A DNA stretch of 62,962 nucleotides, filler included, from Sluysia triapertura (Eukaryota), in NCBI GenBank assembly GCA_046118255.1. It is 5 parts of 5 records of this genome, joined end to end, with 100 filler letters (N's around TTAATTAATTAA, not from the genome) between each part and the next. Parts side by side here need not be neighbours in the genome. Positions count along the whole stretch, not along the records: positions 1 to 10,851 come from JBJNIA010192672.1; positions 10,952 to 25,034 come from JBJNIA010006439.1; positions 25,135 to 36,129 come from JBJNIA010190397.1; positions 36,230 to 51,380 come from JBJNIA010237108.1; 1 more part is not named here. The stretch is one strand, 5' to 3'. A model generated the notes under the pieces. That model did no database searches, had not been told where the DNA came from, and saw only the letters and a list, made by a program, of their open reading frames with translations. Below, one piece after another: positions 3,090 through 44,470 of the stretch (its first letter is position 1; every line of letters starts with the position of its first letter). A program made the translations under genes and the position numbers.

Positions 3090-3480
3090 TGGTGACCAAG
3101 CTTTTCAAAATTTTAACCCTTCATAACACAGCCATATAACACTTAAATCACTGAATACATAAAAATTCAGTAAATTCATGTTTAAAATCTATCAAAAAAT
3201 GCAACGAAATTTCTATAAAAACATCTTCAACTTCTCTTAATTCTCTTCCACAACTCACTTCTCCTTAACCTTCTATCTATTTACTTTCCTAACTTACATT
3301 TTTTTTCTAACACATCATTTTCTCACACGTACTTCTCTTTTTTCGCCACCACATCCACTTGTTCATCATCATGATCATTCAGATTATTATCCGTATCATG
3401 TATAGCAGCATCACTATGATTTACACACTTTAGATACTTACCTACCGCATAACAGTATCGCTACTAAGCTGTACAAAAGT
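3090..3480 (+). mobile_element. TGGTGACCAA motif plus AC/CT-rich leader and decayed basic-hydrophobic mini-ORF (ATG 3178); copy 1 of putative gene-capturing element
   Basis: Motif and layout resemble 12977(-) and 42422(+). Nucleotide similarity to those two copies is weak. Confidence 0.4.
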
Positions 3481-3799
3481 GAAGATAATATTAATATAAG
3501 TTAAGTTACGCTATCTGGAATTGCCAGTAACAGTTAATAGATTTGGAAAATGAAAACAGAGCCGTTGAAGAACATGATGAAAACATAACTCTCACTGACA
3601 ATTTTACACCAATATCAACAAATTCTGATATTGGTAACAGTAGTCAAGGTAATATATGTCAACAAAGACAACTTTCAAATAATATTGAAATGTCACTTTG
3701 CAGACCAGAAATTATTGGACAAAACAATGATTAATTCTTCAAAATTGTCTGAAGAAAACCAATTAAAAACTGGAATATTCAAGTGCATCCAGTGGCGTA

Positions 3800-4575
3800 A
3801 ATCAAGGATACGAATTTCCTCTGTGTGACTTAGATCATTTGCCTGAAACTTCTCATATGCTTAATCAAGTAATCAATTATCCAATTCAACGCGAGAAGAT
3901 AGCGAACGCTTTTGAAAGATTTCAGTATATTAAAAAAGTAATAAATTTATTACACAAGGCTGAAGATGTGATGACACTAAGTCGTTGCATTATTTATATG
4001 AAATAATTCGTTCTCCTATACAATTTAATCGTCATACAATGTTTTCCGAAGATTTCTTAATGGATATGTTAGAATATAACCCAAGTAAGATTTAGAACAT
4101 AGTGACCTTATATTAAATAAATCCAATTATAAAGAAATCATACCAATATGTTTACCATTTAAAACAAAAATTCATCAAACTTATCGAGTTCAATACATTC
4201 AAGATAATTGTTTACATCATCCGTCCTTATTTAATGACAACACAAGTTCATCATTGAATACATCGAAAATACAAGAATCATCATTTTTAATCAATTGCTT
4301 GCTACAGATTTGTCCATGGAAAACAAAAGAGATTTAATGGGCTTACTAAAAGAATTTTGTACTATAATTAGTTACAACCACAACAAAAAGAATTATATTT
4401 TTGTGCTCTTTCGCAAAACAGAGCTCTTAAAGCTTTATTTTATTCTTTTAGAATAGTTCGGCACCGTGTTCAATTGCAGTGTGTAGATCTTTTACAAATT
4501 TTTGTTGAAAATCAACCAAGTATGGTTAGTGATTTCTTTTTAAATAACGCTCGTAAAAGTAGTCAAGATAATCTA
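3800..4575 (+). pseudogene. PPP4R3: PP4 regulatory subunit 3 (SMEK/PPP4R3) fragment, frameshifted, no evident introns
   Basis: Translated peptides in SMK-1-domain order: QREKIANAFERFQYIKK, MFSEDFLMDMLEYNPS, YKEIIPICLPFKTKIHQTYRVQYIQD (~4167-4205, hallmark motif), KRDLMGLLKEFC, LQPQQKELYF, DLLQIFVENQPSMVSDF. Confidence 0.85.
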
Positions 4576-4864
4576 TATATCAGTCTATTAAGTGATTAGG
4601 TACTGGATTTTTAATAATATATATTCTATTCAAAATTATAATAATAATATAGTAATAATAATAATTGTAGGGAAATTACATCAAAATAACAAAGACACTT
4701 CATCCCATAAGAACATTTCTTATATAAACAAACCACTAAATAAACTACTTGACACATTCAAGAACAAACATAGTCATTGTAAATAATTATCAATAGTTAT
4801 ATTCATTGTTATCATAACATCTATCATAATAATCTCATGTCGTCAACATTCAATTTAAATTTCA

Positions 4865-4865
<1 letters not shown>

Positions 4866-4922
<57 letters not shown>
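4866..4922. repeat. (TAT)n microsatellite
   Basis: Direct observation. Confidence 0.95.
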
Positions 4923-5099
4923 ATTTCGTTATTGTCAAACGTTACACCATCTTACCTTTATCTTTTTTTGTTTGTATGCATGTGTATATATAAAATTGTA
5001 TAGATGTCTGCATTTTTTGTATGTATGTTTATTCTTTTTCACTCTTCCTTTTATATTTTATTACTCAAGCTAAATTCCATTTAATACAAATAAAAAAAT

Positions 5100-6525
5100 T
5101 GGCCCAAATCTAATATGTTGCCTGAGCATTACACGTGGTATTGGTATGAATTCGAAACGTTTCTTCAATGAAGCGGTTATTTTGATGTAAAAAAGTTGTT
5201 AGCATCAATGAAAAGTTCAATTATCGATGTTTTATTGCGTAATCAGGAAGAAATTGAAGAAAGACAGAATGCATATGAATTATATGGAGCTGATTTTTTA
5301 TTAGCCGTGAGGACATGTAAATGTGATTAATTGAAATTAATTCGAGTTCGTGTATAGCACTGAGTACTCATGTTATTACACAATTGGTTGAATCTGTCAT
5401 TGAAGATGCATTTAAAGTTGTTTCTGGTTATCCCCCTGATCTTGACTGTGATAATGGAAAATTTCAACTTTTGTATAAGCAAGACTCATTTACAAAACCT
5501 TTTATCGATCAGATACGAGGCTTATTTATCAAAGAATATGCTATTCGAAAATATGTACAAAAGCTTAAATTTGTGTCTGATTCTAACGATGCATATCAGA
5601 TTGAAAACAATCAAACGATTGATGATGTTAATGAAGTCATTAAATGTTATTAAATGATCCCATAAAAAAATTAGCTTTAAAATACAATTTAAGCTCACAT
5701 GTTACAAAAAGTATACTAAGTAAAATCGGTAATTTAGGTGATATGAAAATTAAGAAAACAAAAAGAAAAACTTTGATGCACATTTCATCAGATTTGAACA
5801 AAAGTCAGTCTGTGCCATCTGGAGAAAGTAATAATCGAAATAAATTATATAATATAGTGAGTATTGCAGATAAAAATTTGAACAGAGTAAGAAGCAAATC
5901 TGATGTTTCTAAACAAACTGTGAAACCAAAAATAAACTTCTTACTTGAAATCACTATCAAATCTTTTAAATCAATTGGTAAAAAAGACCAGGACACATTA
6001 CTTGCTATTTCTAGTTACGAAAAGAATAATTCACAAGATATCATTCTTAAATCAGCTTGCTTAAAAAAGGCAAAATACAAGCGCGACCAGTTAGATTATA
6101 TTCCGAACAGTAACACGGAACGTTTAAAATATGGAATCTGCTTTAGTGCCACCTTTGTTTAAAAGATCCCAGTCTTTCAAAAGCGAAACGCATGAACAAA
6201 AAACAAAGAAAACGGAAACAGAAAATTTCAATACAAACTACCTCGTTATGCATCTTTGATTAAAATAAGTAACACTGGAAAAACGAATCTCTTACATCGA
6301 TTAAATAATTTACGCGAAAAGACAAAAATTCGAGATTGCAACAAATTTGAACGCTTATTTACTAAAATAATAGATAAAAATGCTGAAATCCAAAACATAA
6401 AGAAATGTTATTCACATTCAATGATAACGCAATTTTCTAGTACTACCACTACTACTATCACTACTATTAGTACTCGTATTACCACTACTACTGCTGCCAC
6501 GACAACATCTGAAATTATAAAATGA
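5100..6525 (+). pseudogene. Tubulin glycylase TTLL3/TTLL8-like C-terminal fragment with stops and frameshifts
   Basis: SMKSSIIDVLLRNQEEIEERQNAYELYGADFLL, then (W>TGA)LIEINSSS...CDNGKFQLLYKQ, matching the TTL ELYGADF / WLIEIN / DxGxFxLxYKQ motifs of the TTLL3/8 type. Broken tail ORFs 5644-6162 and 6256-6525 follow. Confidence 0.8.
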
Positions 6526-7090
6526 GATAAAATTAAAATAATTAATATTAATAAATTACGATGTTAACAAAAATTTATGGGAAATATTTACTGAACAATT
6601 TGTTTCAACGAAGATTTTATTCCATATGATTATAAAACAATATATTCAAGAGCACTTTTCAATGAAGGTACTGTCAAATTATCTAATTTCTAGGTTAATA
6701 AACTTCATAATGTTCGTTATTTTTATCATGTTCTGCAATAAAAAGCTTTCAAACTGTGTTGTTTTCATATTCATAAAATCAAGTTTTGTTCTCAAAGGCA
6801 TTAAGCCTATTTTGTTTCGTACTTCGTTAATACTTAAAATTTTTATCGTTTTAAATAGTTTCTTCATAAAATTAAAGTTTCAAATAGAACAAAGCCCTCC
6901 AAAATAAAAATAACTATAATGATGAAATTTCAATTTTTTATTTAACGGCAAAGTAGAAAGTTTCCGTTTTGTTGCTATATAAATCAACTACTAAAATTAG
7001 TAGTTATCACAATATTATTCAATTTATTTTCGGCCACAATTTAAAAATCAAATTTTCGTAACACAAATATTTATTCATACAACGTAAAAG

Positions 7091-7570
7091 ATGGCTTTCG
7101 CTCCAAAATCCGAAAGTAACGGCAAAGTTCATTCTGATCAAATGTTAAATTCTCTAATTGAAAATTAGGATGAATTGCAGAGTGATGTTGACAAATTGAA
7201 TACACAAGATTGTGAAGAAATACTAGAACAACATGCTAACTTAGTAAATTCAATGCTCTTATCCGCTGTTAATGACTTTAATTACTCAACACGACGAGTA
7301 TTTACTACAATCTTTAGTTAGCCTTGATGTCAATGAATTTTGATAATATTAAATGATATTAACCATGTACACCAAATGGTTATTTCTCCAATCATCCCAT
7401 TAATAAATTTATAAATATTGATGAGTTAGAAATTAATGCAACTTGTAATGAAAAGATGGAAAAAGTACACCAAAACTATGAATGAGTCAGTTCATAAAGT
7501 TGGTTCCCGTAACAAAGAATCGTATGAGAGTCCATTTAGTTTCATACAATTCAATTCACTAGAAGTAAGC
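7091..7570 (+). pseudogene. Decayed ORF of unknown identity (MAFAPKSESNGKVHSDQML...)
   Basis: ATG-initiated coding-like composition with internal stops; no recognised domain. Confidence 0.3.
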
Positions 7571-8519
7571 TTTCTTATCTGTGTACCTTCTTCTGTCTTT
7601 GGTGATTATTTTCAATTCATTCCCCAATTTTGTAACATTTAAAATATAAGTGTTTAGTGTTTTATTTTAAAATTCTTAAGTTCTTTTATTTTTAAAAGAC
7701 AATAAAATAATTTTTCAGCTCTTAATGGATATTAATGTTAATAACAAACTTCGTTTTGACAAAGAAACTTTAAATCAATACCATTTTATAATTTTATAAC
7801 TTTTCACCCAAACCTTAGAGATGTTAGAATAATTTCGCACCTTAAATTCATTTAAAACTTCAATATTTGTACTATACAAACAGACACATTGATTTGTGAT
7901 TTTGTGAATATACCAATTATTGATTTATGACTTGTATATCGGACACATTGATTTATGATTATTCATATAATTTGTATATTCATTTGTGATTATAATTTTT
8001 GTATTATAAACATTTATAATAATTAATTCGGATTATAATTTATTAATAATAATTAATTCGGATTTTTAATTTGGATTTAAATTAATCAAAATAAAAATAA
8101 AGTAAGTAATTTTATTAGTTAAATTATATGTAAACTTTAATATTTTTTAAAATTATTAATCGAATTATTTTTGTTTTTATAATTAAAATATATAGTTTCG
8201 TTTTAATTTGGTCAAGGCCAGTTAAATTAGGCATATAAACATGCATAAAACTCACAATTTACATACAATTTTTCTACGACTTTGATAGTTTAAAGGAGAG
8301 TTAACCAGCTTTTATAAATATTTCATTTGGAAAAATTGCATACAAGAGTTACATAACTTTTAGAGATTAAGAAGAGACTACAAACTTTTACAAATATTTT
8401 ATTTGGAAAATTGAACATAAAGGACTTGCCAGATTCTTTCTTTTACACGGAATATTACGTTAGTTTATTATACTAAGCTTGGATACGATAAATATCCACG
8501 TAATTTCGAAACATAATAG

Positions 8520-9170
8520 TTTCGCGTAAAATCCATTACTAAATTATTATTATTTGAAGAATTAACCAAGATTAATTCTCCGCAACATATTTATCAATTT
8601 TTATATTTCCTTTGTATGATATTAAGTATATAATATAAATTATTGGAGAGTTCCTTTTTATTAATAATTAACTTCTATAGCTTTAAATATAAAATCACTA
8701 CTGTAGCAAAGTTTTTCTTATTAGAATTTAATTCTGATACCGTAAAATCATTCATTACAAATACTTTTCATAGGATTTACGAAAACTATTTTTAATAATA
8801 CAAAATTTAACTGTTATTTTTCAGTTTGCATTAACTCCCATTCGTTTATAAATTCTATTAAAATACCTCCAGAACTCGACTCAGTTTGACGGATAAGTAT
8901 TTAAGTATTTAATTGTTATTTGATAGAAAGTAAAATATTTGAATAGTCTCGCTGAATATCTTAATAAATTCTCAAACACTTTAAATAGAGCTTTAGGAAG
9001 TTATTCTTATTTTCAATTAAAAAACCTTTTCTCTGTAAATCCAACGGCTAGCCCTAACTGGTAAGCCTAGTACGTTGGTGGACTCACGTAAAAATCATAC
9101 TTTATTCTATAAGGGTCTTATTTACTTTTAAAATCTCACACATATAATCAATACTAAAAATTTAAATAAC
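8520..9170 (+). repeat. Dispersed repeat family B, copy 1 (possibly LTR-derived)
   Basis: AAATCCAACGGCT...CTGGTAAG...GTTGGTGGACTC (9038-9086), CCTCCAGA and CATAGGATTTA match the reverse complement of 35600-36120. Confidence 0.7.
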
Positions 9171-9910
9171 TATTTTATAAATAATACTAAACTCCATACT
9201 AAGCAATTTTCACTACTATTTCCACTAATATTTATAAGTACTCTGGCTTCGTTTATAAGGCATGTCATATTGACGCCACTTAAGATGGTTAATGTTATTA
9301 GTTAGAGTGAAAATAGTAAATTATGAACGTTATAGTCTACGTTGACCGTGATTTGTGTAGATCTGAAAAACATAAGTATGCATGCATCTTATAATATTTA
9401 TTTCGTTTAAAATACTTCATGATAATCTGAGATTTTAAATCACTTTTACTTTTATTAACAATTCAGTATCCTGGGTTTTAAGTTTAACTTTATCTTCAAT
9501 TTCTTTAACTTGATTTAAAAATTCATTGGTGGAACCTAATAGCCTTCTTAGAGCTATCCATCAAATGCAGAAAATCTTTAATTCCAACATTATTAATGTC
9601 TAAAACTAATCAACTCATTTTCAAAATTAGACAAATCAAGAGTAATGAAATTGTTTTAAGCTTCGACAGATTCATGCGTAAAATCCGACCATGTATGTCT
9701 GTATTTACCAAACAGATAATACGTAGGTGAGAAAATATTGGTAAATTTATTTTAAATAAATTTTAAATATAAATACGCATATTTTGAATTTTTGTAAAAA
9801 CAATGTATTTGTAGCTTTTTTTTCAAGTTTTTACACATGTGTATTTATGTTTGTGACAATAAAAGATTTGCAAGCTCCACAAGTTGTATGTTATAATGTA
9901 TTGAAAATAT

Positions 9911-9987
9911 CACGACTATATTCGTGCTGGCAATACGCAACACCCAGCCAACCATGATATATTCGTGGTTGGCAGCGAATGGGTTAA
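9911..9987 (+). mobile_element. piggyBac-type element terminus
   Basis: Ends GGG-TTAA, preceded by a duplicated subterminal palindrome (CACGACTATATTCGTG; GCCAACCATGATATATTCGTGGTTGGC). Confidence 0.55.
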
Positions 9988-10851
9988 GAACATTTTAAAG
10001 ATAATTTTTCGTAATTTCAGAATTTTTATGCTACTTCTTTGAAGATACTGAAACTACTGATTAGTGACCACGTATAATGCATGTATCTTATAATAATAAT
10101 TAATAATTAATAATATTAATAATTTATTAACATTAAATAATTTTACATAAACAAAATATTATTTTTTTACTTTGTCATTGCTTATTTCAAAATTGCCACA
10201 ATTTATGAATTCTACCCAAATTTTATTTATTAATTCACCGTGATCAAACATCATATATAAATTACCTTTTAAACGGTTAATAGTTATTTGAGTTTTTAAA
10301 ACATCAACAAACATAACTGTTGAAATACAAAATTGTGAAAGGCATTTGTGAGTATGTCATATTATTTTGCCAGAAACAACATTTCTAGAAAAAGGAGGAT
10401 GAACTAATTTCCCAGTTTTGCATTTTGAAAAATAAGTTAACGTATTCTTGAATATTCACGTTGAGTATTGGCACGTAAGGTTGTAGTTATGTAATGTTTA
10501 AGATGTGAGAAATGAAAAATGATGAGAAAATTGATATTGATTGACTAAAAAATTGACTAATTATTATCGTGATTATATCAAAATTGTGATTATGAACGTA
10601 ATTATGAATTGTAAATATTATAAAAAGTTATCAATATTATAAAAATTACTGAAACTATAAAATATAAATTATAAAAAATATTATAAAAATTTTTAAATAA
10701 ATTTAAAAATTAAATAAGCAAAATATTAAATAAATTTAAATTTAAATATTTTAAGATTTAAATAAAAAATAAATTTTTGTTAAATTTAAATATTGGATTT
10801 AAATGAATTTTTGTTTAAATAAAGTAAATAAATTAATACGTATAAACAATA

Positions 10852-10951
10852 NNNNNNNNNNNNNNNNNNNNNNNNNNNNNNNNNNNNNNNNNNNNTTAAT
10901 TAATTAANNNNNNNNNNNNNNNNNNNNNNNNNNNNNNNNNNNNNNNNNNNN
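10852..10951. other. Artificial contig linker / gap
   Basis: N44-TTAATTAATTAA-N44, with stop codons in all six frames. Confidence 0.98.
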
Positions 10952-10989
10952 CTTTGAAAACCTACATATACCTTACCATTCAAATCAAA

Positions 10990-12200
10990 ATAGTTCTTGA
11001 TTTTGCATCCAACTTTAATATAAACTTTCTTAGAAAAGCCATATAGATTTTAATAAATTGTTCATGCGTATTACGCAATCGTCATAATTAACGCAACTTA
11101 TTTGTTGATTATTATGAAAATATTGACACGATCTTGCCGATTTGCAACATTGACTAAATTCATTTAATTGATATTGACATTGCACCGATCGAAATAGATT
11201 ATGTTCTTGTGGATTAGAAATGACGTCGGTTAAAGATACGATTATCGGAGGAATATAATAGTTTGTGACACTTGACTTGATGATTGGATGCATGTTAAAT
11301 CTAGAAAGCTGAATCTTTGTTGGATACTTTACTGTATTTTCATCGTGAAACAATTAAGTATTACGTAATTCGTGATAAGAGAGAAAAGTGGTCTACATTT
11401 ATATTTTGTAGAACTATATTTATCTGAAAATTCTTCATTACGGTAAGGAGTATACTTGTAGTTTCAAAAACTGTAGATAATTTAGATCGTGCATTAAACA
11501 TTCATCTATACTTTTTACATTCACTTGATCCCAGTTGAGTACGACTTAGAAGGAAAACATTATAAGGAAGCATTTTATCAATAATTGTCATAGAGTTATA
11601 TAAAATCATACTTACATGTAATTCTCCAAAATTTTTGTCTCTGTCTTTTCTCAAATAGATTACCCACAATATTTCATAAAATAGTCTGTTATTAGATAAA
11701 ACGACGATTTCAAAGATGCTTTATTTATTGCTGGATGTAAATAATTACAGATACGAATAGGATTATATGTTGGCAAAACTCTGAATTTTACATCAGTTTC
11801 ATTAAAAATATGTTGCATGTATTTCTTTAGAACATTGATACTTTGTAGTTTACCACTTTTTGCATTCACGATGAACATTAATAGACGGACTCTAACTGAT
11901 CTATATTCGAATGAATAGTAGATAATCTTATTTGATAAATATTTTGGTTTTTTAATTTAGATTTTAAAAATCGGTAGAGTGACTTCGGTAGTATCTGGAT
12001 TAATTTCATATGAATATGCATACATCTAAGGTTGACTAGTATATCTATTATTTTTTAAAGGCTTGAATATACTGACTTTCTTTTCGAACTTTGTGGTAAC
12101 TAACATAATAGTTGTATTAATTAATTGATCTTACTCTAACTAGGAATCACCATTATGTAAGAACATCTTAAATAATTTTATCAATTGTATTTGTCTGTCT
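10990..12200 (-). pseudogene. Decayed coding fragment, possibly TMEM131-like
   Basis: Broken ORFs 11878-11660 and 11353-11030. QSINVLKKY, ETDVKF, LSTVFETT and VISNPQEHNLFRSVQ loosely follow TMEM131 segments (QSLNIMNSF, SEDVRF, LSAIFEVN, LENPADVPVYVQ) in order; the match is weak. Confidence 0.35.
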
Positions 12201-12329
12201 AAATTTTAAACTTGTCCTTATTTTATTTGTTGTACTCAAATTTTTATGATTATTTTTTATTCAACCAATTATTGATGTTTATTTTTAACTATCTGAGCTA
12301 TAAAATCCCATTGATTGGTCACATAACAA

Positions 12330-12977
12330 AATAATAGGAGCCATGATGTTATGTAATAACAATAAGTAGCAGTACGGTAATTGTAAAATTTAGTGAGAAG
12401 TAATTAATAAAAATTTTAATGAAAAATAATTAAAAATGTCAAAACTGACAGTCTCATTGTTTAAAATTATACAGTAACAAAGATAATGAAAATGATAATG
12501 GCAATATTAATGGTGTTAATAAAATTAAACAAGTAATAAATCAAAATTAGTACAAATAAAATTAAGATTAAAGTGCATAAACTCTTTAAAATTCTTTCCA
12601 CGATCTTTCTTTCCTTTCTCTTGTTTCTTAACATATTACTAAATGAATTTAACTTAAAAAGTGTTTTATTGACGTAAATATTAAAAAATGATTAAGAAGT
12701 GTGAGTTTAATGTTTGTCAAAGGTGTTAAGGATTGTGAATTTGAAATGTCTTGGATTAATTTTAACATCTTCTGTGATAATTTAAGATGTAGATTGTGAT
12801 TCGAATGTTGTAAAATTGTGAGTTGAAATTGTTTTGAATGTTTGGATGAAAATGTAACTTTGGTGTTGTAAGATTGTGAATTTAAGGTGTTTTAGCAAGT
12901 CTGAGAAAGTAATGTAAAATGTTAGTAAATGTTATTAAAAAATGATTTTAAATTTTAAATGAAAAGGTTGGCCACCA
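12330..12977 (-). mobile_element. TGGTGGCCAACC motif plus AC-rich leader and mini-ORF (ATG 12634); copy 2 of putative gene-capturing element
   Basis: Mini-ORF MLRNKRKERKIVERILKSLCTLILILFVLILIYYLFNFINTINIAIIIFIIFVTV* is nucleotide-homologous to 42892 onward; the leader also resembles 42430-42890. Confidence 0.65.
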
Positions 12978-12979
12978 CA

Positions 12980-13445
12980 ACAGACATTATCAGATCTTAT
13001 TTAAATACAAAACGTCACCTTGAGTCTGAGTTTAGCATACAAACAATATTAATTCTTTTAGCTCAACTCGGTTAAGTGAAAAGTTGGATAAGTGGCTGAA
13101 AAATAGAAACATAAGTTGTTTACTCGTCATAAATCTGATTCATTTTGAATCGAAATGTCAATTATGATGAGAAATGGATCCAGTGAGACAATCTCAAACG
13201 TTCAGCATAGTAATGAATGACCAAATGAACAATATTCATCAAAAGAAGCTGATTATGAGTTCTTAATGGTCTAGTGCAAGTTTGATGCATTATGATTCAC
13301 GAAACCTGGCTCATCGATAACAACAGAAATATACTACAACCAAATAGACGAAATGGTGCAAAAAGAACAGCCTAGATTGATCAACTAATCGACTCCTACC
13401 TTATTGCATGACAGCACTAGATTGTACATTGCACAATCGACAATA
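12980..13445 (+). mobile_element. Mariner transposase remnant
   Basis: TIL...QLG*VK..DKW, DEKWIQ*DN (cf. TCDEKW.YDN), HQKKL, KPGSSIT, LLHDSTR (cf. LHDNARPH); multiple stops. Confidence 0.85.
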
Positions 13446-14753
13446 AAATATTTTTGTCACAAGTAAAATCGAAATTTATTTACATTGAAATCAAAATTTA
13501 TTTACAGTTTAGACGTACATTAACTGAATTATGTGATAAGTGATTGTAGTAAGCTGTTACTATTGTTTAAAGTAATGGTGCAATTAAAGTGACGCCGAAG
13601 TTAACATAAGGTTATTGAAATTAAAATTGATTAATCTTGTAACAATGAGAATTAGATGTTGTATGTAGTAAATGATTTGGAATGAATGTATTTAAAATGT
13701 TCTAGGGTTGATATAAGCTAGTATTTGTTTTAAATGATAAGAATGGTAATAGAATTGTGACGCATTGAGGTTATTGATATTTTGTATTGTTTATATGGGA
13801 AAGTTAAAATTGTAAGTTAAGGAGTGAACCACTACTATTTAAGAGCACTAAGAAAGTAAAATTATTAACGCAAATAGACGTAAATTAATTATTCTTCATA
13901 TAACTTAAGTTCTAAAATAAAGAATAAAATACTTTTTTTTACATTTAAATGTTATGGAAACTTCCTTTGAAATTAAACTAAATAACAATTTTTATTTTAT
14001 TAATTATATTTAATTCATAAGAAATAACTTTTCACTTTCGAAATCTTCTGATATGTTATTCCAACGTAAACCTTTTTTGTTGGCGATACCCTTGCAACAC
14101 TTAACGAGACTTATGGACTAGATTAGATATTTAATTTTTGTTTACGCCAACTCATGTTTATGTTAAGTCTCATATTCTTAACCCATTTGCAAAAATAATG
14201 AAAATAATAATAATATTAATAATTAAAAATAATTTTTGTAATAAAAATATTAATATTATCTAAACTTTTAAGCCTACACGTTTTTATAATTATCATAAAA
14301 TGGAGTAATATCGTATATCACGCTATTAAATTAAAGTATTGTCATAAAAATAAAGCAAACATTTTCAATTTCAAGTGATTTTTGCGATCAAATATTATAG
14401 TGTAATGAAATTAATATGAAACTATTCTTAATGTATTTAAATACCTCGTTATATTCGAATGAATGACTATATACCCACAATAATTCAATTGACCAAAAAA
14501 GCCTAAAACCTTTTACAATCGCATAAATTACGCTTTTGGTTATTTATAAAAAACAATAACTATAATAAACATGAGTCTTTGACCAAACAATGTCTAAATC
14601 TTAAGGTGGGAAATACTAAGGTGATTCAACTCCTTACTTTGTATAAAATTTAAACTTTTTTGCCCTACGATACATAACATATTCAGTAATAAAAGAAATT
14701 TGTATTAAAACTTAAACCTGCAAAGGAGTAATTGTAATTTATTATGATTTCAG

Positions 14754-15932: not shown

Positions 15933-16688
15933 ATGGGTAAATTAATACTTACGATTTTAACTTATTTTGAAGAAAATCAGTTGCTACTAGAAGAAAGTGA
16001 CGGAACCAATATTCTATCTACAGCAATACCAATGAAAAATTTATTGAGGAAAGACGTATCTATAACAAAAATATCTTCCGACCTGGATAGTTCCATAATA
16101 TCAGATAATAATCTATTTAATGTTAAAAAACAAAATCATTCTTTAAAATTAAGAAAAAATCCAGGTTTATTAATAACACCTCAACAAAAAGCTCATAAGT
16201 TAGGTGTTTGTTATCGTTATCATGTTTTTATTATTTATCATTCATCTGATCGTGTTTGGGTAATGGGTTTAATGAAAAAATTGGAATCACCGCCTCTGGA
16301 ATATAAATGCTGTATTGATAATCGCGATTTTTCTAATTCCATTTCAGAAGTACAAAACATTGTTTGTTGTGCAATGTTAAGTGAACGGATATTGTTAATA
16401 TTATCTGATAATTTTTTGTTAAATAATTGGTCCTATTATGAAGATATTTTCGGCAAAGTATACATGAATAATAATCAGTTAATTTGTAAACTAATTGGTA
16501 TATGGGTTGACAAACCGTCTTTGATTAGTAATACAAGTAAAGTACCATGTATAAAAGGAATCAATGTATTAAATTCTCGTGACGATAATTTTTGGCAGAT
16601 TTTGGAAATGAATTTACGCAGAGATCCAATTGAAATGTACGGTTCTAATAGTACACTGTGGTCATTAGTATCACAAACTACACGTTAG
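15933..16688 (+). CDS. TIR-domain protein (no TM, LRR or death domain visible)
   Basis: YHVFIIYHSSDRVWV (box 1), KLE...CIDNRDF (box 2), SERILLILSDNFLLNNWSYYE. Probable 36-nt in-frame intron 15937-15972; a possible donor at 16684 means the gene may continue. Confidence 0.85.
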   Translation: MGKLILTILTYFEENQLLLEESDGTNILSTAIPMKNLLRKDVSITKISSDLDSSIISDNNLFNVKKQNHSLKLRKNPGLLITPQQKAHKLGVCYRYHVFIIYHSSDRVWVMGLMKKLESPPLEYKCCIDNRDFSNSISEVQNIVCCAMLSERILLILSDNFLLNNWSYYEDIFGKVYMNNNQLICKLIGIWVDKPSLISNTSKVPCIKGINVLNSRDDNFWQILEMNLRRDPIEMYGSNSTLWSLVSQTTR

Positions 16689-22299: not shown

Positions 22300-23900
22300 T
22301 ATGTTGCCAAACTTACTCTTCCATCTTAATTTGACATAAGTATCTTTTATTCATTTTGAACTAATGCTATACTTATTGTACAATATATATTTTATATCTT
22401 ATACTATTTTCTTTGGTAAACAAACTTCTTTATGAATGATAAAATTCAATAAAGCCCATTAAATTCTATACAAAATTTAAATTTATAAACTATTATGAAA
22501 AGGATGAACTTCCCAGTAAAATAAATAAAACTGGAAGAATTTACATACACAATGTGTATCAAATTGAATAAACCATAAAAAGACGCACTTATGAGAATCG
22601 AATTTAATGGTCAAAAATCTAACATAGTCACGATTTTCCGAAGATTGTGTCGTGTTGAAACGGCAAATTTATCTTCTCCTTGGCCACCAATAGCGTTTGC
22701 ATGACTTGATATACCATCGCTCTTTATACTATGTTATTCTATAATGTTTGTTCCTCCTAATTTGAATCATCAAAACATTGCTGTCATTATATCTCTACTC
22801 ATCAATTAACTCTTCGGTGATATTTAATTTTTCAAAATCAGATGAGATAGTCGTTTCAAAGATATAAAAATTCCTGGCTGACATTTATTTGTATTTGCGT
22901 CATTCATGTTCTATAATTTAATCTATACCAACTTTTAATTTTCTACTAACTCTCTTTAATTTGTGTGTTTATTTCGTATCCATTTTGTTTATTATTGCAC
23001 TAGTTTTATTGGCTGTTTTTTAATGGTTAGTTAATCATGTTTCAGATTTAACCAATTGCAGGTGAAAACGATAGACATGCAATTGGCTTTTCAGCCAAGT
23101 TTGCATTTAATATATATCTTCTAAATGTTCTGATGAATCCAGAGGTGACCTTTTTTCTTCATAAATGTTGCTTATGCTTTACATTATGATATTCAAATAA
23201 ACAAGGTGCTGATAAATTCATCCCAATAATTTTAATGGTCATTAGTATACAAAGGTAACATTTATTAAATCTTTCAACCAAATCATCACATTCTGGATAA
23301 TAATCCGGCATTTTTATATTATTATAAGATACAAACTTGTCATTGTTTTTTTGGCGAGCCGTATCCAAAAACGATTTCTTCTACAAAAAATTATCGCTGA
23401 TCTTTGATCCGTAACATCATTTGCTTCAGATCATTTTGTAAAATCATCCTTTTAATGTAATGGATCGACAACATCCATGGAATTTATCTCTATTGGTCAG
23501 GCTGTAGCATTAATAAGATGCAGGTAGTTTTAGTATTTAGTTTTTCTGCCTTTTCAACTCAAAAAACTTCACAATTACCACATCACTTTTAACATCCTTT
23601 TCATATTTTCGTAAAAAATAAATGTATTCCTATAATTCTTCATCATGATACTCGTGTAAAATTTCTGACAAAAATATACAAAATTTTAAAATATCATGTT
23701 GTATAACATAGTCGATACTTTATTTTTAATTTTTAAAATAATTCGTTCTTTTCCTTTATCATATTTATCTTCATTTTTCTATAATTCATTCGCTAATGTA
23801 TTTTTTGTCAAAAACGATTACTTCTCATTTAGTTTAGATGAAAAATTAATATTTGCATTTGACTTTCCTTGTCTATATTTTATTCCTGATTAATCTACAA
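22300..23900 (-). pseudogene. Long decayed coding-like region, unassigned
   Basis: Raised GC and stop-interrupted reading frames including ORF 23368-23159; no confident family motif. Confidence 0.3.
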
Positions 23901-26190: not shown

Positions 26191-26416
26191 CTATTAAAAT
26201 TAAATTTGTTATTAAATAAATCATAAGTTAAACTTTGATAAATTTGCATAATATTTGATATTATTAATTTAAAATTGAAATTATTATTCTTCCTCCACTT
26301 CTATGATTTGTAAAGTGTTTGAAAAACTAACACTCAATAAAGTACAATAAATAAATGCTTTTGTACTTGGATAAATCAAGATATCCCACTGAAATATCAA
26401 TCGGAAGTTGTATTAA

Positions 26417-27061
26417 TGTTAGGTTGTCAACACAACCCTACGAAATAACTTTAAAATGCCATAATGACACTTTAACATTATTTAAAACTATCAAAAAATT
26501 AATTGAAATCATGTAAAACGCTTTAAAACCATTTATTAATATTTAACATTACTTAAAAACAATTATTTTCCAAAATAGAAATTTATTTTCCACAAAAGAA
26601 ACTTAAATTCTAAAAATAGAATAGAATTTCCATTTATATATTTTTACGGGTGATTTTAACTTTCGAAGCTAAAATCATAAAATACCAGCAAATTTCATAT
26701 TAATTTATAAAGTTTTTTAAGTCCCAGATTTATTGAAGGGTTAAATCTACTCAAACTATACATATTTAAAAATAATTATTTTTGCCTTCTTAATCTACTA
26801 TCTTAATTGATTAAAATTTTTGTATTTTTGAATAAAAGAATCAGTACTTTTGTGTTGTTTAATTATTTAATTAATACTATTAAGCGATTATAAGACCATC
26901 TACAATTAATTTGTTAGCTAGAGATATTACTTTTTAGGTAACCCTTTAACTTATTAGTTACATATGCGCCAACGATACGATGTAAGACATTTACTGTAAC
27001 CAGACCCTGCTCAAAAATATTTTGCTTAAGTGTTAGGTTAAGTGCTAGAAAAAGCATAGCA
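26417..27061 (+). mobile_element. Solo LTR related to the LTR at 52700
   Basis: TGTTA...AGCA ends and TTAA on both flanks (4-bp TSD). Shares GAAATTTATTTTC, TTCTAAAAATAGAATAGAA, CGCCAAC and ACCCTGCTCAA with 52700-53553. Confidence 0.8.
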
Positions 27062-32350: not shown

Positions 32351-32425
<75 letters not shown>

Positions 32426-32430
32426 ATTAT
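32187..32430. repeat. (AAAT)n run and inverted (AAT)n/(ATT)n microsatellite
   Basis: Direct observation. Confidence 0.9.
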
Positions 32431-36120: not shown

Positions 36121-36129
36121 TTACAGTGA

Positions 36130-36229
36130 NNNNNNNNNNNNNNNNNNNNNNNNNNNNNNNNNNNNNNNNNNNNTTAATTAATTAANNNNNNNNNNNNNNN
36201 NNNNNNNNNNNNNNNNNNNNNNNNNNNNN
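36130..36229. other. Artificial contig linker / gap
   Basis: N44-TTAATTAATTAA-N44. Confidence 0.98.
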
Positions 36230-39200
36230 TATTTAGTAAGAGTTTTTTGTATAAGTTTCTAAACTTGAAAAGAAATTAAGTTATAAATTCCGACTCAAAA
36301 TCTCATCTGTACGATTGATCCTTAAGATCGATTAATAAAATCATCTTCAAAATATAAATTCACAAACTTTTTGTTGGTCCTTAAGATCAATCACAACATT
36401 GTTATTATAGGGTGGAGTTTTTTAAAAGCTACATCCTTAATATATTAAAGTGCTTATTGTTTATTATACATTTATTATTGTTGTTTACGATCATATTTTA
36501 TAGTAACATTTTTAGTAATTTTTGCGAATATTAATTTGATAATTGTGTACTTTTACTATTATATATTTTATAACATTTATTTCAATAATTGCATTGCGTT
36601 AGTTGTTGTACAATAAAAATTAGGTTTTCGTGTTATTGTTGTTTACTTTAAGAAATAGAACGTTAAAATATAATTTTAATAATAATCTCACTAAATCATT
36701 TTGTGTTTAATACATTGTAATTCACCTTAGGAAGTTTTACATTTATATTATTATAAACATTGCTTTACCGTAAGAGTAACGAGTTTGCTTGATAATATTA
36801 AAGAAAGACGAAGTATTATATTTTTTAAGGAGTTAATTTTGATAATTACTTTACGTGATTTTTACAGGTACGCCATAGGTAAGTCGTATACTGTAAACGG
36901 ACTCATAAATATTATTTATTTTGCTGTAGGGAAGCTTTTAGGTTAAAAAAGAACCCAGCATTTAGTATTTTTCATTGATAATATATTATGATCAATAACT
37001 CCTCAGTTGAACTTATACGATGAAATTGTATGCATAGTTAAAATAACTTAAATAATTTTAATATCGTATTTTAGCTACTTTTCCCCTAAAATGTCGGTTT
37101 GACAACATTATGTAAGAAACAAATAAAATCAAAAAATAAATATATTAATTATAATTTGAGATATGGCTATATAATGAAGGCATATAAAAATGGAAGAAGA
37201 TTGCTAATTACTTTACAACGTATACAATTTTGATTAAAAATCTTTTGGAGGAGTAATTTTTAGACATTGTTTTTGGTACAAAGGTCTACACGTGATAATT
37301 TAATGATTTATTATTTTTCGACAAGAATTAATTATAATAATACGTGGTTATTAAATTAATTCTTTCAACGAGAGAGTATCATTCTTTATCCTTCCTATTC
37401 AAGAAGCACTAATGTCGCAACTAGATTATTAATTGAAAATGGCTGCTTTTGAGTTGTATTCTAGGTTTTTGTAAGTTTATTATCTTAAGCTCCATCCCTG
37501 TTAAGGTAAATTCACAAAACATTAACCTCTCTTGTTTTGGTTAGGAATGATATCTCTCTAAAATTAAAAAAATGAGTTAGAATCTCGAATTCTAATTCTA
37601 ATTTATATTTGATTATGTTTTTATATATTTACATTATTCAATAATTGTACATTCGAGTCAATTTTAGTTGTGTTTAAAAATTTTAGGTATTTTTTTTAGA
37701 TATCTTAATCTTTGTAAATTATTAAAGAATAAGTTAACTCAATAATATAAAAGTAACAATTTGATTTTTTATAATTCATAATTCGATAAGAGAAATTAAT
37801 AAGATTACAATAAAAGTTACTAGAATTAGTAAAGATTTATATTAAGTTAGTCCACTAAAAAAATCAATTAAGAGTCAGACTAAAAGTAAAAATAATTATC
37901 CAAGAAAGGAAATTAATTAAGGTTAAAGAAGTTCAATTGTCGTAAGATTTTTCGAAAGACATATTGATCAATTAAATTTGAAATACCAGATTTATATACT
38001 CGCATTAAGGAAATACCCGAAAAACTCTGTGGATATGTCGCATTAGGCATAAATCATAGATCGTAGGTGAACCCGAAGTATTTGCACAATTAAGAAAATA
38101 AACTTTTTCATTTAAAACCAGTGCACATTGTAGACAAAAATATTACCAGTATTTTAATTGAGTATTACATCAGCATCTGAAAATACATATAAGTTCTCAG
38201 TACTAAGCTTAAGTTATATCTAAACGTTGATTGCAGGTAAACCTAATTAGAATTTATATTTTGCTAAATAGGTTAGGTAAATTATAGTAAAATGCTTTCA
38301 ATGATAATTTAAATGATTCGTAATTTTTCGGACGCTTTATGTATCGCTTAAATTATCCCAAGATTAATTGTGACTTCAAATTTAAAATTAAGGTGAATAT
38401 TAATAATGCTAAATCTGAACGAAGTTCTGAACATTCAGCATTATTATAAGATACATCAATATCCTCTACTGCATCAACAATTATTTGATTCGATTTTTAA
38501 AATTATATATTCAAATTATATATGGTCTCTTTTATTGTATTGAGATTTGATAAAGAATTTAGTTTGTATAAATTTACTTAATTTGTCCGACCATGATATT
38601 GGCAGGTGAACAGGTCACTATTTTGAGAAATAACACCTCAATAGGCAGTAGAGTACAAACAATTGTTAAATTAACAATGAATGATGAAATGCATGCTTAC
38701 TTCAATACTATAATGCCGCTTATTAGTGTATAATCAAATTGTAATACAACCAAAGCAAAAAATATTTTTGATAGAAAACTTCCAAATAATAAGATTTCCA
38801 TCAAAACTCATCTCCGCGAGCAGATATTAAAAGAATCAATGCAAAATAAAAGTTAATGATAATAATAATAATGTATTTTAAAATTTATTAAAAATAATCG
38901 TTTATTTTGAAAATTGTATAAATTTAATATTTTTGATTTTGAGGTATAACATGATGAATAATAAAGTTAATTTCCAGGTTACTAAAATTAAATACAAATT
39001 ATGAAATTGAAATACAAAATTACGAAATTTGTATTATTTTATATTTTTTAGAAATGGAATTGTGTACTAAAATGAAAATATTCTCAAAAAAGCATTGATA
39101 GTTTTATAAAAAGCATAGATAATGACCTTAATTTTCTCTGGGCATTTGGTTTATCTATTACATATCCTCGAAGTGCGAAGACGAACAATCATATTTATAT

Positions 39201-40567
39201 TTATGAATAAATTCGATTGCACAGAAACTTAATAAAAATTTGAGGTAATATGATAATATGCACATTTGCAAGAAATTATGTTAAAACAAATTATATTTAT
39301 TTACATACAAATCTAACTTATGGTCAATATTTTATATTTTTTAATTATAATCTAATACGTTTTCTTTGAAAAGAATTTGATATTCTATATTTATTTACAT
39401 TAATTAAAATCAAAACTTCATACTTAAATATTACATTTGAATAAAATTAGTTCTAAGTAATTAATTAGAATGTGAAAAATAATTGAAATATTGAAAGCTT
39501 GTACATAGATAAAAAATAATCGAAATTATGAATAAAAAATTCGTCATGTTTTTTCTAAAAATAAAAATTTAAATCAACTAATATCATAAACAACAATAGT
39601 ATTAACAATCATTTTTGGCACATAGAAAATTATTAAACTCATACAAACTGTCGATATTCGCATTCATCTTTATATTATCTGTTTATAAATAGATTTTTAT
39701 TGAATGTGTGCTTTAAATTTTTGATATTCAATAATTGATCCAATGATACATATAAATTGTGTTATAAAATAGATTTAGTTTATCATTAAAATTGATTAAA
39801 TTTATTTTGTTGTAAATCATTCTTTACTTGGTCTGCTATCCGAAGTTATTAACGATTGGAGCTGCCAAGAAAAGGGTGATAAACACCAATTTAATCATCA
39901 AAAGTATTGACTTATTTTCTAACAAGAATTTAGAACATTAGGGTTCGATTTTTATTTCTACACATTTTAATTTTATCCCATCAGAAGCATTCAGATTCTA
40001 AACTAATTTGGCCTTAAATTATTGAAGTCATGTGTATATTTCATAAGTTTTTAAATATCCATATAATAAAACAATTTAAGTAATTCTTCAATAGATCTGA
40101 AGTGACAAAAGGCATTACTAAAGTTGTAATTTTGTTTAATACCGATGAAGTCTCGTTCATATGCGCCTAGTTTCAAACAACTAATAATTTTATCTAATAC
40201 ACGATAAATTTACAAGTTTTAAATATTTTTAAAAATTAAATTGTATTCTACATTTACAATACTCTTGGTTATTTGAATAAATTTATTATTGGTTTTATGC
40301 ATTTTATCTTAAAGTTAAATTTCACTGCGTCTTTTGAACTTTTTTAAAATAATTCAAAGACTAATGCATTTCATTTAAAGTCTAAATATATAAATACTAA
40401 ATACTTTAAAAAAATTTCATAATCATATATTATAAATTTATTATTATATATTTTTTAAAAAAATAATCATTCTAATACTCTTTTTAATATAAAATGTGTT
40501 CTATATACTTTTGAATTCAAGGTCGCATTAGTTTGCAATCTTGTGTTTTAAAAATTAAAATTTTACA

Positions 40568-41027
40568 ATGGCACAAAGTGTTTGTTCATCTGCCACTGAA
40601 GATAATCTCTCAAATAACAATGACAGTTTTAAGAAATATTTGGATGTTTTATTATGTGCTTATCAAGTCATGTCATCCAAATTAAATAATAAATTGAAAA
40701 ATATGAGTTATTTTGATATCATTAATTATGATGAAAATATGGTAGTGTTATTTAATTTTATTTTAATTATGTTTTAGCAACAAAAATGTGATGATGAAAT
40801 AAACAGAAAATATCAGACACCTAAAGGAAAAAAAATACTTAATTTGACTTCAACAGCTAAAAAGCGAATTCATGATACATCAGAATTAAGTGAAAAGGTA
40901 AAATTGATTAACGTTATTATTTTGTCTAGATTTTACAAAAGAAAGCAAAATACGATGATATTTCAGTACGAATGCTATGTGGCAAAGTAAGCATTTCTCA
41001 ATTTTTAAAACACTTTAGCGGCAGTAA
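40568..41027 (+). CDS. Small orphan protein (119 aa, 4 exons)
   Basis: Exons 40568-40741, 40778-40897, 40930-40986 and 41019-41027; three phase-0 GT-AG introns of 36, 32 and 32 nt give an open frame MAQSVCSS...RMLCGKRQ*. Confidence 0.7.
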
Positions 41028-41714
41028 ACTTAAGAATGTTAAGAAAAGAAAAAAAGTGTTCTATTTAACTAAAGGTTTAACTTAATTTATACAATCTAGC
41101 ACATTAACAAAACCAAAAGGGAATAATGATAGTATCAATACAGTTAAATAATTTATTATTTATTTAAATCATAATGATGGGTATCTACTTTTAAATTTGG
41201 AAATAGTTTAAAGTTGCTTAAAATTGTATAAGATTTTTTGTCGTGTTTTACGTTTCTTTTAAAAATTTTCAAATAGAAACTAACAGTATTCAAGAACCTA
41301 TCTTTAAATTCTGGGTGGAACTTTTTCGTCGTATCCGTAGATTATTATATAAACGAATTATTAATTGCTTAATTATAATTATTTTATAACCATTTATTAA
41401 TAAATTAATTAACTAATTAAAATACTGATGTCTATTCTTGTCAATAAATCTTCATACTTGGATTTATCATTGTAAAATGTAACAAGGGATAATTCACGAA
41501 CAAAAGATTAAAATTTGTAATTGATAATGTATTATAATTTGATTCTTCAAAATATAATAATGAACAATTGATACGGTATATTGAATAACACAATCCACAG
41601 GTAAACGTTTACAAAACAAATATATAATTAAGGGTGACGTAGGTTCAGAGAAATTTTACTCTTTATAACAATATATAAAAAGGAAGGTTAATATATAAAA
41701 TAAAGAGATTTTAA

Positions 41715-41835
41715 CGCTAAACGTACTACGTTCGGTCAAATAACCGTTTTTAGTTTTTGTATTGGTTTTTACCATTTTGTAATATGAAGGGTGATGGTAG
41801 AAATAGATATACATCAAACTTTGGTACGTTTAGTG
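41715..41835. mobile_element. 121-bp TTAA-flanked MITE (piggyBac-type)
   Basis: TTAA TSD; TIR CGCTAAACGTAC / GTACGTTTAGTG (11 of 12 match). Confidence 0.7.
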
Positions 41836-42129
41836 TTAAAGCTAGTTTATTATAGCTAAAAGTTATTGAAACAAAACTTACGTTTATACTATTGTCGAAT
41901 ATTCGACAGAATCCACTAATTCAATTATTTCTTAAGAGCTGATATATTTGCATTCTATTTATAAAAAAGTTTGCATTCTTCTTCTAAGCACAATTTGAAT
42001 TTCGAAACTTCGAAACATATATTAGAAATGTTATGACATGGGAAAAAGAATTCAAGACTGTTAAGATCACTAAAAGTAAGAGATGGTAGATATTTAAAAG
42101 ATATTACTTAAATCGTCGAGCAGCGATCA

Positions 42130-42400
42130 TTCAGAAACAAAATATTTTTCATCATCCTGTGGAACCACATAATATTGTAAAGTATCAGGCCATGAATCAT
42201 CTTTGATATAAAACATAGCATGTAACTAAAAAGTTCATCATGACATGTAAACCATTGCATGAAAATAATTGGGTTATAATCAAATCCTTTATGATGAGCT
42301 CAAATATGGCTTTATTGTTTTTTTCATATTTTAATAGCATTACTCTCTAACTCAAGAACATGTATAAAATCAGTATTGATAGCATTGGCAGAGTGGTCAC
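42130..42400 (-). pseudogene. SET/NAP-family (nucleosome assembly protein) C-terminal fragment
   Basis: FMQWFTCHD...(frameshift)...IKDDSWPDTLQYYVVPQDDE, cf. SET FFTWFTDH...IKDDIWPNPLQYYLVP. Confidence 0.65.
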
Positions 42401-42421
42401 TTGGTTCAGATGTTATTATTT

Positions 42422-43140
42422 TGGCGGCCAACCTATAACTTTTAACAAATTTTAACAAAATTTTACAAAACCACCTTTCACATTTTTTTTACTTTCAAAC
42501 ACTACAGACATAAAATCCCATAGTCTCAGCATCGGAAATAATCAAACATTACTTCAAAAATCAATCGAAACATTTCAAATTAATTTAACACATTGAGCAT
42601 AAAACCACACACTACAACATCTCACCTATTCTATTATCAAAACATTTTTCATATCTTGTTTCTTTCAAATTCACTAAAACCAGTCTCATTTCAAAACCAT
42701 CAATTTACAATTAAAAATTCATCTAAAACATTTTATTTTTCATTTCATAACAGTTCAATCACATACACATCCTAAATTAATGACTGGACACCTTCAAATC
42801 AATTCAAACATCCAAAATTCATAATCTTTTAATATTCAATCCCTAACATCACAGAAAAATAACTTTACTTAAGGTTATTAAGATTTTAAATATGTTTAGA
42901 AATACAAGAACTAAAAGAAAGATTATGTTAATGATTTTGAAAGAATTTATGTCTTTGTCTTACTTCATTAAATTTAATAATTATTACCATTATTATGTTA
43001 ACCATTTTGTTATTATTTGGTGTCATCATTTTATTATTATCAGAATATTAATAAAACGAACCACATGCTACGATGACTAATTAAATCACATTTAACTGTC
43101 ACCATTGTGATCATCATTCACGCAGTACAACTTCATAGTG
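42422..43140 (+). mobile_element. TGGCGGCCAACC motif plus AC-rich leader and mini-ORF (ATG 42892); copy 3 of putative gene-capturing element
   Basis: MFRNTRTKRKIMLMILK then, with a 1-nt shift, NLCLCLTSLNLIIITIIMLTILLLFGVIILLL; homologous to 12634(-). Confidence 0.65.
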
Positions 43141-43299
43141 ACAGATGTGCATTTTAAGTAACATATTTGTATTACTCTTGTGATTGGGCATTCAATCAGT
43201 TCCAGTTGTGATGTTGAATGTCCAATCAGGAAGCTTTCCTATAGCATGACTAGCAATTTCATTACATATCGTACAATCACCAGTATATGTACTTTAACA

Positions 43300-44470
43300 T
43301 TATTTGTTAAAAGTTATTAACAAATAAACAAAGAAAGGACTAATTTTTTAAGAACAAAGATTGTTAAAAATTTTAATAAAATACTGCTACAATCAATGAT
43401 TTACAACATGAAAGTTAACCAAAAACAATTATTGCTAAATTGTATTTCTTCGAGTAAAATTACCTACTTTTTATTTGTATAAAGATAATTAAAAAAAGAA
43501 ATTCATGATCAATTTCGAATTTTTGATTCACTCAAATGTGTCAGATTCTTCCACGATTTTGTTTTATTAGAACAAGAGTTGAAAATATTTTCGTTCACCT
43601 TTCAACCTCAAGTAATCAAGGTCAGGAACCTTTAGTCTTCCAAATTTCAGAAATTCTTGGCATTAAAATCGATGAAACTGTTGAATTTATAGTGTGTTAA
43701 GTAACAGAGCTTTCAAATGGTCTGTTTCACCACCACAGATCATGTATCATTTTCCATTCATATTAGTCATCTTAAATAAATGCATCGAAATTCGCATGTT
43801 TCCATCATCAATACTCATACAAACCTTAAGTGTGGACAATAATGACAATTGTACTCATCGCTATCGCTATCATTTATTAAACAACAATCAGACATGTTGT
43901 TTAGTTGGTACCCCACAGTTGCAGCTAGTTCAAGTTTATTCACAGAATGAGGATTTCGAGTTAGTTTTAATGTTAGTTAAAATAGCATACCTACTTGGTG
44001 AAGACACAAAAGCACTTTCTAAGATTAATCGTAATTATGCAAGAATGCAAGCTTGAAAAATCAGTCAATATATTCATAAACACGACAATAGTTCCGTTAG
44101 ATATTCTCGCTACTTGCTCAAAAATATGCCCGGAGAATTTAAATAAAGTATTAACTAGATGTTGGAATGATAACTCTAATGAAGAAGGAAACTCTTAGGT
44201 CACAAACTCCTTGAGAAAAATTTTGGTTAAATGGTTAAAGGATTCTCAGAAATGTTGAGATATAAACAGTAATTCTAAAACATCAACTGAAATGCACCAA
44301 TCATTCTATGCTAAAATGTCCTTGTTAAACCCAGAGCAATTAATCAAATGTTATTTATTAATTGACATGTTAACTCAGCAAAACCATCGACAAATACTCG
44401 AAATCAGTTCACAAGTCATAATCTTGCACAAGTATTGAAAATCTCTTATCGAAATATGTTCAGGAAAGAA
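43300..44470 (+). pseudogene. VPS39: VPS39/Vam6-like (CNH domain) fragment, frameshifted, no evident introns
   Basis: GQEPLVFQI, KWSVSPPQIMYHFPFILVILNKCIEIRMFPSSILIQTLSV, QLVQVYSQNEDFELVLML and KLEKSVNIF...PLDILATCSKICP follow the VPS39 motif order. The paralog TGFBRAP1 is not excluded. Confidence 0.7.

Follow-up and report, generated by a model that had tools for sequence, protein, structure and literature searches.

A repeated leader beginning at TGGYGRCCAA lies upstream of intron-free host-gene pieces in Sluysia triapertura

We analysed a stretch of 62,962 nucleotides, filler included (the window), from Sluysia triapertura (assembly GCA_046118255.1), in which a preliminary description had proposed a family of gene-capturing elements. 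The window consists of five AT-rich contigs (approx. 25% GC) joined through N linkers, three of which carry a copy of a unit made of the motif TGGYGRCCAA and the leader that follows it (copies 1, 2 and 3; table 1). This unit is a repeated non-coding element of approximately 0.6 kb that starts sharply at TGGYGRCCAA and lies upstream of decayed, intron-free host pieces. The only clearly intact spliced gene in the window is VPS28, for which the five introns described earlier were recovered, each 30–35 nt long, which is very short for an animal; the source would be an animal whose introns are very short. In Pfam scans of all 220 open reading frames (ORFs) of at least 48 aa and 300 of the 612 shorter ones, broken conserved host genes appeared only in the motif-leader clusters. 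No tRNA gene was found in the window.

Table 1. Position, strand and supporting evidence of features in the window.
Feature	Position	Strand	Basis and remarks
Copy 1: terminal motif and G-poor leader	3090..3400	+	motif and skew; right end approximate
PPP4R3 (SMEK) pseudogene piece	3812..4590	+	homologue residues ~133-419; Pfam PP4R3; frameshift- and intron-aware alignment
TTLL3/8-type pseudogene piece	5121..5482	+	PDB 5vlq 468-530 and 538-589; Pfam TTL
SET/NAP-family-like decayed piece without TGG leader	7086..7620	+	weak PDB matches to SET and NRP1 chains (E 0.1-1.4)
Copy 2 cargo, decayed DAGK_cat-family piece	10952..12110	-	runs to contig end; library support limited to 11663-11956
Copy 2: terminal motif, G-poor leader, purine-rich block, 55-codon ORF (12634-12467)	12470..12977	-	motif, skew, alignment to copy 3
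Mariner transposase remnant, head to head with the TGG end of copy 2	12978..13700	+	Pfam Transposase_1, E 0.016 and 0.096; right end approximate
Fourth exact motif, no leader, excluded as copy	22680..22689	-	skew -0.08
Second SET-like piece, antisense to copy 3, ending at its TGG	41950..42421	-	homology to 7356-7499; contig depth 148-204
11-nt direct repeat, possible target-site duplication around 586-nt leader	42411-42421 and 43008-43018	+	
Copy 3: terminal motif, G-poor leader, conserved block 42889-42951	42422..43100	+	motif, alignment, high copy in run X1
Copy 3 cargo, CNH-domain (VPS39/TGFBRAP1-like) pseudogene piece	43140..44470	+	Pfam CNH, E 2e-4; multi-copy
HINE/DINE-1-like repeat, very high copy, four 3' hairpin-type motifs	44770..45430	+	just downstream of copy 3 cargo; structure compared with PMC4067079
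VPS28 gene, intact	48675..49480	-	five introns of 30-35 nt; intron-density control

The leader and the host-gene pieces behind it

All three motif sites of the preliminary description were found where it had placed them, at 3090(+), 12977(-) and 42422(+), and a fourth exact match lies at 22689(-). Against these four matches, order-2 Markov simulations (300 runs) gave 0.11 on average, with three matches reached once and four never; the significance is overstated since the motif was chosen post hoc. An independent and stronger feature is the onset of a G-poor, C-rich tract at the motif in all three copies. Its C-over-G skew is 0.70–0.74 downstream and 0.01–0.06 upstream of the motif, and copies 1–3 are the top three loci by downstream skew among 813 TGG trinucleotides. 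Motif and skew onset at three sites are together far above chance. The match at 22689(-), which has no G-poor tract, was rejected as a copy.

The clear homology described earlier between copies 2 and 3 was recovered: they align with z-scores of 9.0 and 6.0 against 100 local shuffles (7.8 in a separate test) and share a best block of 76% over 63 nt (E 6e-6). Copy 1 aligned with neither (z -1.1 to 1.2) beyond its first 18 nt, which match copy 2 at 16 of 18 positions; 18-mer pairs as good as this occurred 1–5 times in each of 12 simulated windows. The membership of copy 1 rests on motif plus composition. No Rfam family was found for the leader at the gathering threshold across the window or in E-value scans of 1–25000 and 36230–51380, and a degenerate pattern of the block conserved between copies 2 and 3 gave 0 matches against metagenome contigs.

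Further candidate sites were rejected. A site at 13831(-), the fourth by skew and a possible fifth copy, did not align with copies 2 and 3; judged by mariner motifs, its tract reads as the antisense of the 3' part of the mariner remnant. Another candidate, at 45575, also has a hydrophobic ORF of this kind but could not be aligned with copies 1–3. The common motif TGTGACMAA (four sites) was dropped because one of its sites sits in mariner coding sequence.

The unit had also been credited with a short basic-then-hydrophobic ORF. This did not hold as a family feature, the ORF being intact and hydrophobic in copy 2 only: the in-frame ORF of copy 3 (62 aa) is not hydrophobic, and copy 1 has an ORF of 20 aa. 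A strict scan for basic-hydrophobic ORFs returned one in the window, against 0–3 (mean 0.75) per shuffle in 20 shuffles, and the mini-ORF is at chance level. Over the 16 codons of the conserved block, copies 2 and 3 differ by seven non-synonymous and three synonymous codon changes, and the hydrophobic halves of the mini-ORFs are low-complexity sequence of 81–83% A/T. The mini-ORF is probably incidental.

Behind copy 1, Pfam matches, PDB entry 5vlq and alignments bore out the PPP4R3 and TTLL3/8 fragments of the preliminary description. Cargo was aligned with a program that allows frameshifts and GT-AG introns of 26–60 nt. The PPP4R3 piece is identical to a mollusc homologue at 98 of 257 positions, with four frameshifts and small deletions, no insertion and no intron, and its identity is secure. 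It ends at about residue 419 of 758–912, with no poly(A). The N-terminus (EVH1 part) was at background level in the 400 nt upstream of the piece, and a 5'-complete PPP4R3 copy is unsupported, this domain being undetected there. We further noticed that the 257 aligned codons contain no stop codon despite four frameshifts and several small deletions, hinting at deletion-dominated decay, to which the aligner's freedom in placing frameshifts may contribute. The TTLL3-type piece is collinear with 5vlq across a frameshift, again with no intron, and open frames that reach 6525 may be its tail.

The cargo of copy 2 was probably misnamed as TMEM131-like, since Pfam scans of the region gave DAGK_cat (E 0.014; Atlas 0.82–0.83, a lead only) and no TMEM131. 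It is likely of the sphingosine/ceramide-kinase type, a label that is kept tentative because four PDB searches retrieved no lipid kinase. For copy 3, part of the cargo (43617–43951) aligned without introns to an unnamed homologue, P0003, with 39 of 111 positions identical. This homologue and the CNH domain are the grounds for a probable VPS39-type assignment, and the outer limits given for the piece are putative. A pre-miRNA-sized hairpin (43181–43229 (+), z -3.8) lies at the start of this cargo; it has no Rfam match and no counterpart in the folded stretches of copies 1 and 2. Searches of the protein collection matched two of 72 candidates with the PPP4R3 piece, 0 of 1,827 with the CNH piece and 0 of 10 with a VPS28 exon; scanning with VPS28 exon sequence yielded a single, unrelated locus at 52%.

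The cargo had been described as co-oriented and without evident introns, and comparison with homologues confirmed this for the PPP4R3, TTLL3 and CNH pieces, all of which are frameshifted. Because 0 introns were seen over 1,482 nt of tested cargo against about 11.5 expected at VPS28 density, a baseline given by VPS28 alone with the cargo compared to homologues of other species, the cargo is judged to have passed through RNA. A co-oriented, recognised fragment lies within 1.3 kb behind three of three leaders (p approx. 2e-4 under random placement, with distance and fragment list set post hoc). The recurrent unit thus stands as motif and tract at three sites, although it is less uniform than had been claimed as regards copy 1, the mini-ORF and the name of one cargo.

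These results bear on whether the window simply holds a chance neighbourhood of unrelated repeat remnants and pseudogenes, copy 1 being no member of any family. The unaligned remainder of copy 1 beyond its 18 nt, the abundance of equally good 18-mer pairs in simulated windows, the one exact motif in four that has no leader and the chance-level mini-ORF would all fit such a neighbourhood. It would leave unaccounted for the coincidence of the motif with the top-ranked skew onset, the alignment of copies 2 and 3, and the association with cargo together with the multi-copy depth presented below, and we consider it very unlikely.

Ends, copy number and interpretation

The upstream flanks of the three copies share no common homology (z -1.9 to 0.3). 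The TGG end of copy 2 meets the mariner remnant, whose extent is estimated from translations read against mariner motifs. The TGG of copy 3 meets the second SET-like piece, which matches 7356–7499 at 65.5% over 145 nt (E 1.9e-8; z 10.6) and had no PDB match of its own and nothing in the Atlas. Because foreign sequence abuts both copies, we read TGG as the end of the element in copies 2 and 3 and not as an internal primer site behind a long terminal repeat (LTR). The two diverged SET/NAP-like pieces lie on different contigs, suggesting a pseudogene family of their own; a search downstream of copy 3 for the 5' half of the SET-like gene was negative (20 tile-strand tests, best z 2.9).

The TGG start and the A/C-rich tract resemble a primer site and a retroviral-type leader, and we counted this in favour of ordinary LTR-mediated retrocopies, in which TGG would be a tRNA primer-binding site and the LTRs would have been lost to erosion or to sequence inserted over them later. 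Truncated, intronless, multi-gene and re-amplified cargo fits the retrocopies of PMC5131818, and the fifth contig has a gypsy-like element with a TGG primer-site-like motif of its own. That element differs in its motif, however, and the tract behind it is G-rich, not G-poor. The unrelated upstream flanks, the recognisable foreign sequence right up to TGG in two copies, and a flank of copy 3 that is shallower in contig depth than the interior, the reverse of what LTRs would give, also argue against it, and no repeat of the upstream flank was found in the 7.7 kb downstream of copy 1 or in the 9 kb downstream of copy 3. Eroded LTR retrocopies therefore appear improbable.

Depth was taken from the contigs of one public run (X1; 0.65 of words) matching 40500–48500 at 80% likeness, with figures drawn from 40 of 632 difference rows, 15 of 123 joints and 8 of 7,065 pieces; contig depth in this run is not a copy number. 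Single-copy bins have a depth of about 25–35 (some up to 73). Ahead of the copy 3 motif, 530 nt stand at about 122–204 (bins 148–204), some five times single copy. The leader of copy 3 has bins of 1,742 and 8,651, values that low complexity has probably raised, and single sites that include depths of 828 (19 contigs) and 1,011 (11 contigs). In the spacer behind it, at about four times single copy, sites 43109 and 43122 have depths of 104 (4 contigs) and 118 (5 contigs), and these contigs span the join of leader and cargo, running on for 94 and 81 letters. Cargo bins rise to 342–519, approximately 11–17 times single copy, and among the rows listed up to 23 contigs cover a variant site, with the window's letter in the minority. 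Four cargo-start joints among those listed skip 113–905 nt, as deletions in other copies would, and a 368-nt contig matches the window's copy 3 cargo exactly, so that this part of the cargo is no assembly error. Leader 3 and its cargo are both repeated, and the joined leader-cargo form likely exists in a few copies.

We tentatively favour, at a little short of an even chance, a 5' module of a non-autonomous retroelement that template switching fused to spliced mRNAs, the product being amplified again afterwards. The leader would be transcribed and packaged, and a borrowed reverse transcriptase would switch template onto a spliced host mRNA, entering it mid-body, copying toward the 5' end of the mRNA and jumping to the leader. 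Such a course would account for cargo that lacks its 3' end and poly(A), and for the run of several genes that follows copy 1. The TGG end may be tRNA primer-site-like or the 5' end of the RNA, integrated without a 5' LTR, and the leader-mRNA chimeras would then likely be copied again; the partner enzyme and the route of integration are ones that we infer. The RNA-mediated, gene-capturing element of the preliminary description is supported in part, by the intron-free cargo, its common orientation in three of three copies and the multi-copy depth of leader 3, its spacer and its cargo, and weakened by the unreliable mini-ORF and by the structural searches that follow.

Several results weigh against the template-switching module. 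No LTR pair was found, nor a direct repeat of the upstream flank within the distances given above for copies 1 and 3. A pair of terminal inverted repeats with a target-site duplication, and an inverted partner with matching flanks, were not found either. Candidates for a Helentron-type pair of inverted repeats are a one-mismatch inverted motif whose end, at 45568, is 3.1 kb away from copy 3 and has no clear hairpin, sites at 3351 and 10070 for copy 1, and for copy 2 a single site with two mismatches. No flank repeat of note brackets a whole unit, the 3' side of copy 2 being cut by the contig end. Poly(A) was not found behind the cargo; the sole A-rich run in the window is at 1589, and old tails can decay. 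No hammerhead was detected in the Rfam searches described above (0 at the gathering threshold; one chance snoRNA match in the E-value scans), and loose matches to the hammerhead core motif are not at unit ends. Intronless pieces without a TGG leader exist, namely the SET-like piece at 7086 and the TTLL3 piece, and about 400 nt without recognised sequence separate leader 1 from the PPP4R3 match. The depth of the spacer (104–118) is well below that of leader (828–1011 at flanking sites) and cargo (496–1225) and near that of the SET-like flank, so that most cargo copies may lack this leader; all these depths come from the contigs of one run at 80% likeness, with low-complexity leader bins that are probably inflated. 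Finally, an exact 11-nt repeat brackets leader 3 (chance expectation 48 of 8,269 positions, 0.6%, or 39 of 1,770 AT-rich ones, 2.2%), and the SET-like flank may resume behind this leader for about 22 AT-rich nt (score within the top 1.0–4.7% of windows).

The last two observations would be expected if the leader were an independent short insertion, like a short interspersed element (SINE) or a MITE (miniature inverted-repeat transposable element), some 590 nt long with a tail of AT-rich, low-complexity sequence, that had come to lie among ordinary processed pseudogenes, the resulting mosaics being multiplied by another vehicle such as Helentron/HINE elements or segmental duplication. The steps in depth, from flank at about five times single copy to a much higher leader, then spacer at about four and cargo at 11–17 times, agree with this, as do the HINE-like 3' hairpins directly behind the copy 3 cargo. 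Bat Helitrons amplify nested retrogenes (PMC4224331), and a Culex Helentron carries gene fragments (PMC4067079). However, no convincing direct repeat flanks the leader in copies 1 or 2, a test beyond leader 2 for the mariner N-terminus, itself insensitive, was negative, the SET-like resumption spans only about 22 AT-rich nt, and the co-oriented cargo behind three of three leaders is left unexplained. We regard an independent insertion, the main rival, as unlikely, though clearly less so than LTR retrocopies; were it true, the locus would be nothing unusual, a patchwork of pseudogenes and short repeats.

Agents that make retrocopies outside mammals are mostly taken to be LTR elements. If the template-switching module is real, a shared LTR-less leader heading different intronless genes, each capture being amplified, would add to the ways in which animals duplicate genes and shuffle exons, and pseudogene families would be inflating this genome's gene counts and read depth. 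A bolder version, which we think improbable, is an LTR-less, mRNA-packing retroelement family starting at a primer-site-like TGG end, for example as minus-strand cDNA integrated without a 5' LTR, that captures different housekeeping mRNAs behind one leader, amplifies each into its own subfamily and seeds the genome with processed pseudogenes. No LTR-less capture family with a shared leader was found in the mostly open-access literature covered, and among the papers listed for the motif strings none concerned an element.

Neighbouring elements

The HINE/DINE-1-like repeat behind the copy 3 cargo belongs to a family with members at 47575–48025, 44770–45430, 26415–26640 and 52680–52860, which have a 5' palindrome and a 3' hairpin; the summed contig depth of the first two reaches 66,781 against about 30 for single copy. 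An AT-rich block at 45575–46370 (+) has a contig depth of 650–2,266 and a short hydrophobic ORF.

A decayed gypsy-like element occupies 53550–59700 (+), with a TGG primer-site-like 18-mer at 53559 and a long T/G-rich untranslated stretch. It contains, as judged by eye, gag-like and protease-like motifs, and two Pfam matches to a Monjiviricetes-type fusion glycoprotein (58625–58828 and 59146–59313). A glycoprotein ahead of the protease-like motif would be an unusual order or a nested insertion. At 15933–16688 (+) an ORF runs for 251 codons without a break and encodes a TIR domain (Pfam E 5e-5); it is absent from the protein collection and may be an intronless gene or a young retrocopy. A Pogo/Tigger-type DDE_1 transposase remnant (61170–61721 (+)), two more dispersed repeat pairs (9025–9160/35560–35740 and 25945–26271/32237–32587) and a 75-nt tandem array (62131–62571) were also observed.

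Comparison with known systems

LTR-mediated retrocopies of metazoans are partial, intronless mRNA pieces without poly(A) and with 3'-biased truncation; fusions of two or more genes occur, and the chimera can be re-amplified as a non-autonomous element (Tan et al. 2016, PMC5131818). The class is further marked by a primer-binding site that pairs with the 3' end of a host tRNA and by microsimilarity where element and mRNA meet. The cargo in the window is likewise intronless, truncated and without poly(A), as judged against homologues. Those retrocopies lie between stretches of LTR-element sequence that include both LTRs, whereas here no LTR was found and foreign sequence stands at the TGG. The unit would work like them, but for want of LTRs it is not placed in this class.

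Chimeras made by template switching of long interspersed elements (LINEs), such as WEIRD-MGL 'MINE' in Magnaporthe and the U6 type, combine a full-length 5' module of fixed start with variable retro-copied sequence at the 3' side and include tripartite forms (PMC2104539). The three copies here share a fixed start with variable sequence behind it. The LINE 3' end and flanking 10–20-bp repeats of those chimeras were, however, not found at the units here, which carry a truncated piece of host coding region on the 3' side and a 5' module that has diverged from copy to copy and is of high copy number.

Maize Bs1 is also a retroelement with segments of three host genes, but it is a plant LTR element with one fixed capture set, whereas in the window the cargo differs by locus and the leader is common (PMC13317346). 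Bat Helitrons likewise multiply intronless host pieces inside a non-autonomous element (PMC4224331). In HINEs the subterminal repeats may form palindromes and be set just a few bases in from the 5' end (PMC4067079); no clear combination of matching subterminal repeat and 3' hairpin was found to bound the three units, and the terminal motif of the nearby HINE-like repeats is different. Gene capture with amplification is widespread (PMC13317346, PMC4224331 and the giant-transposon review PMC6431247).

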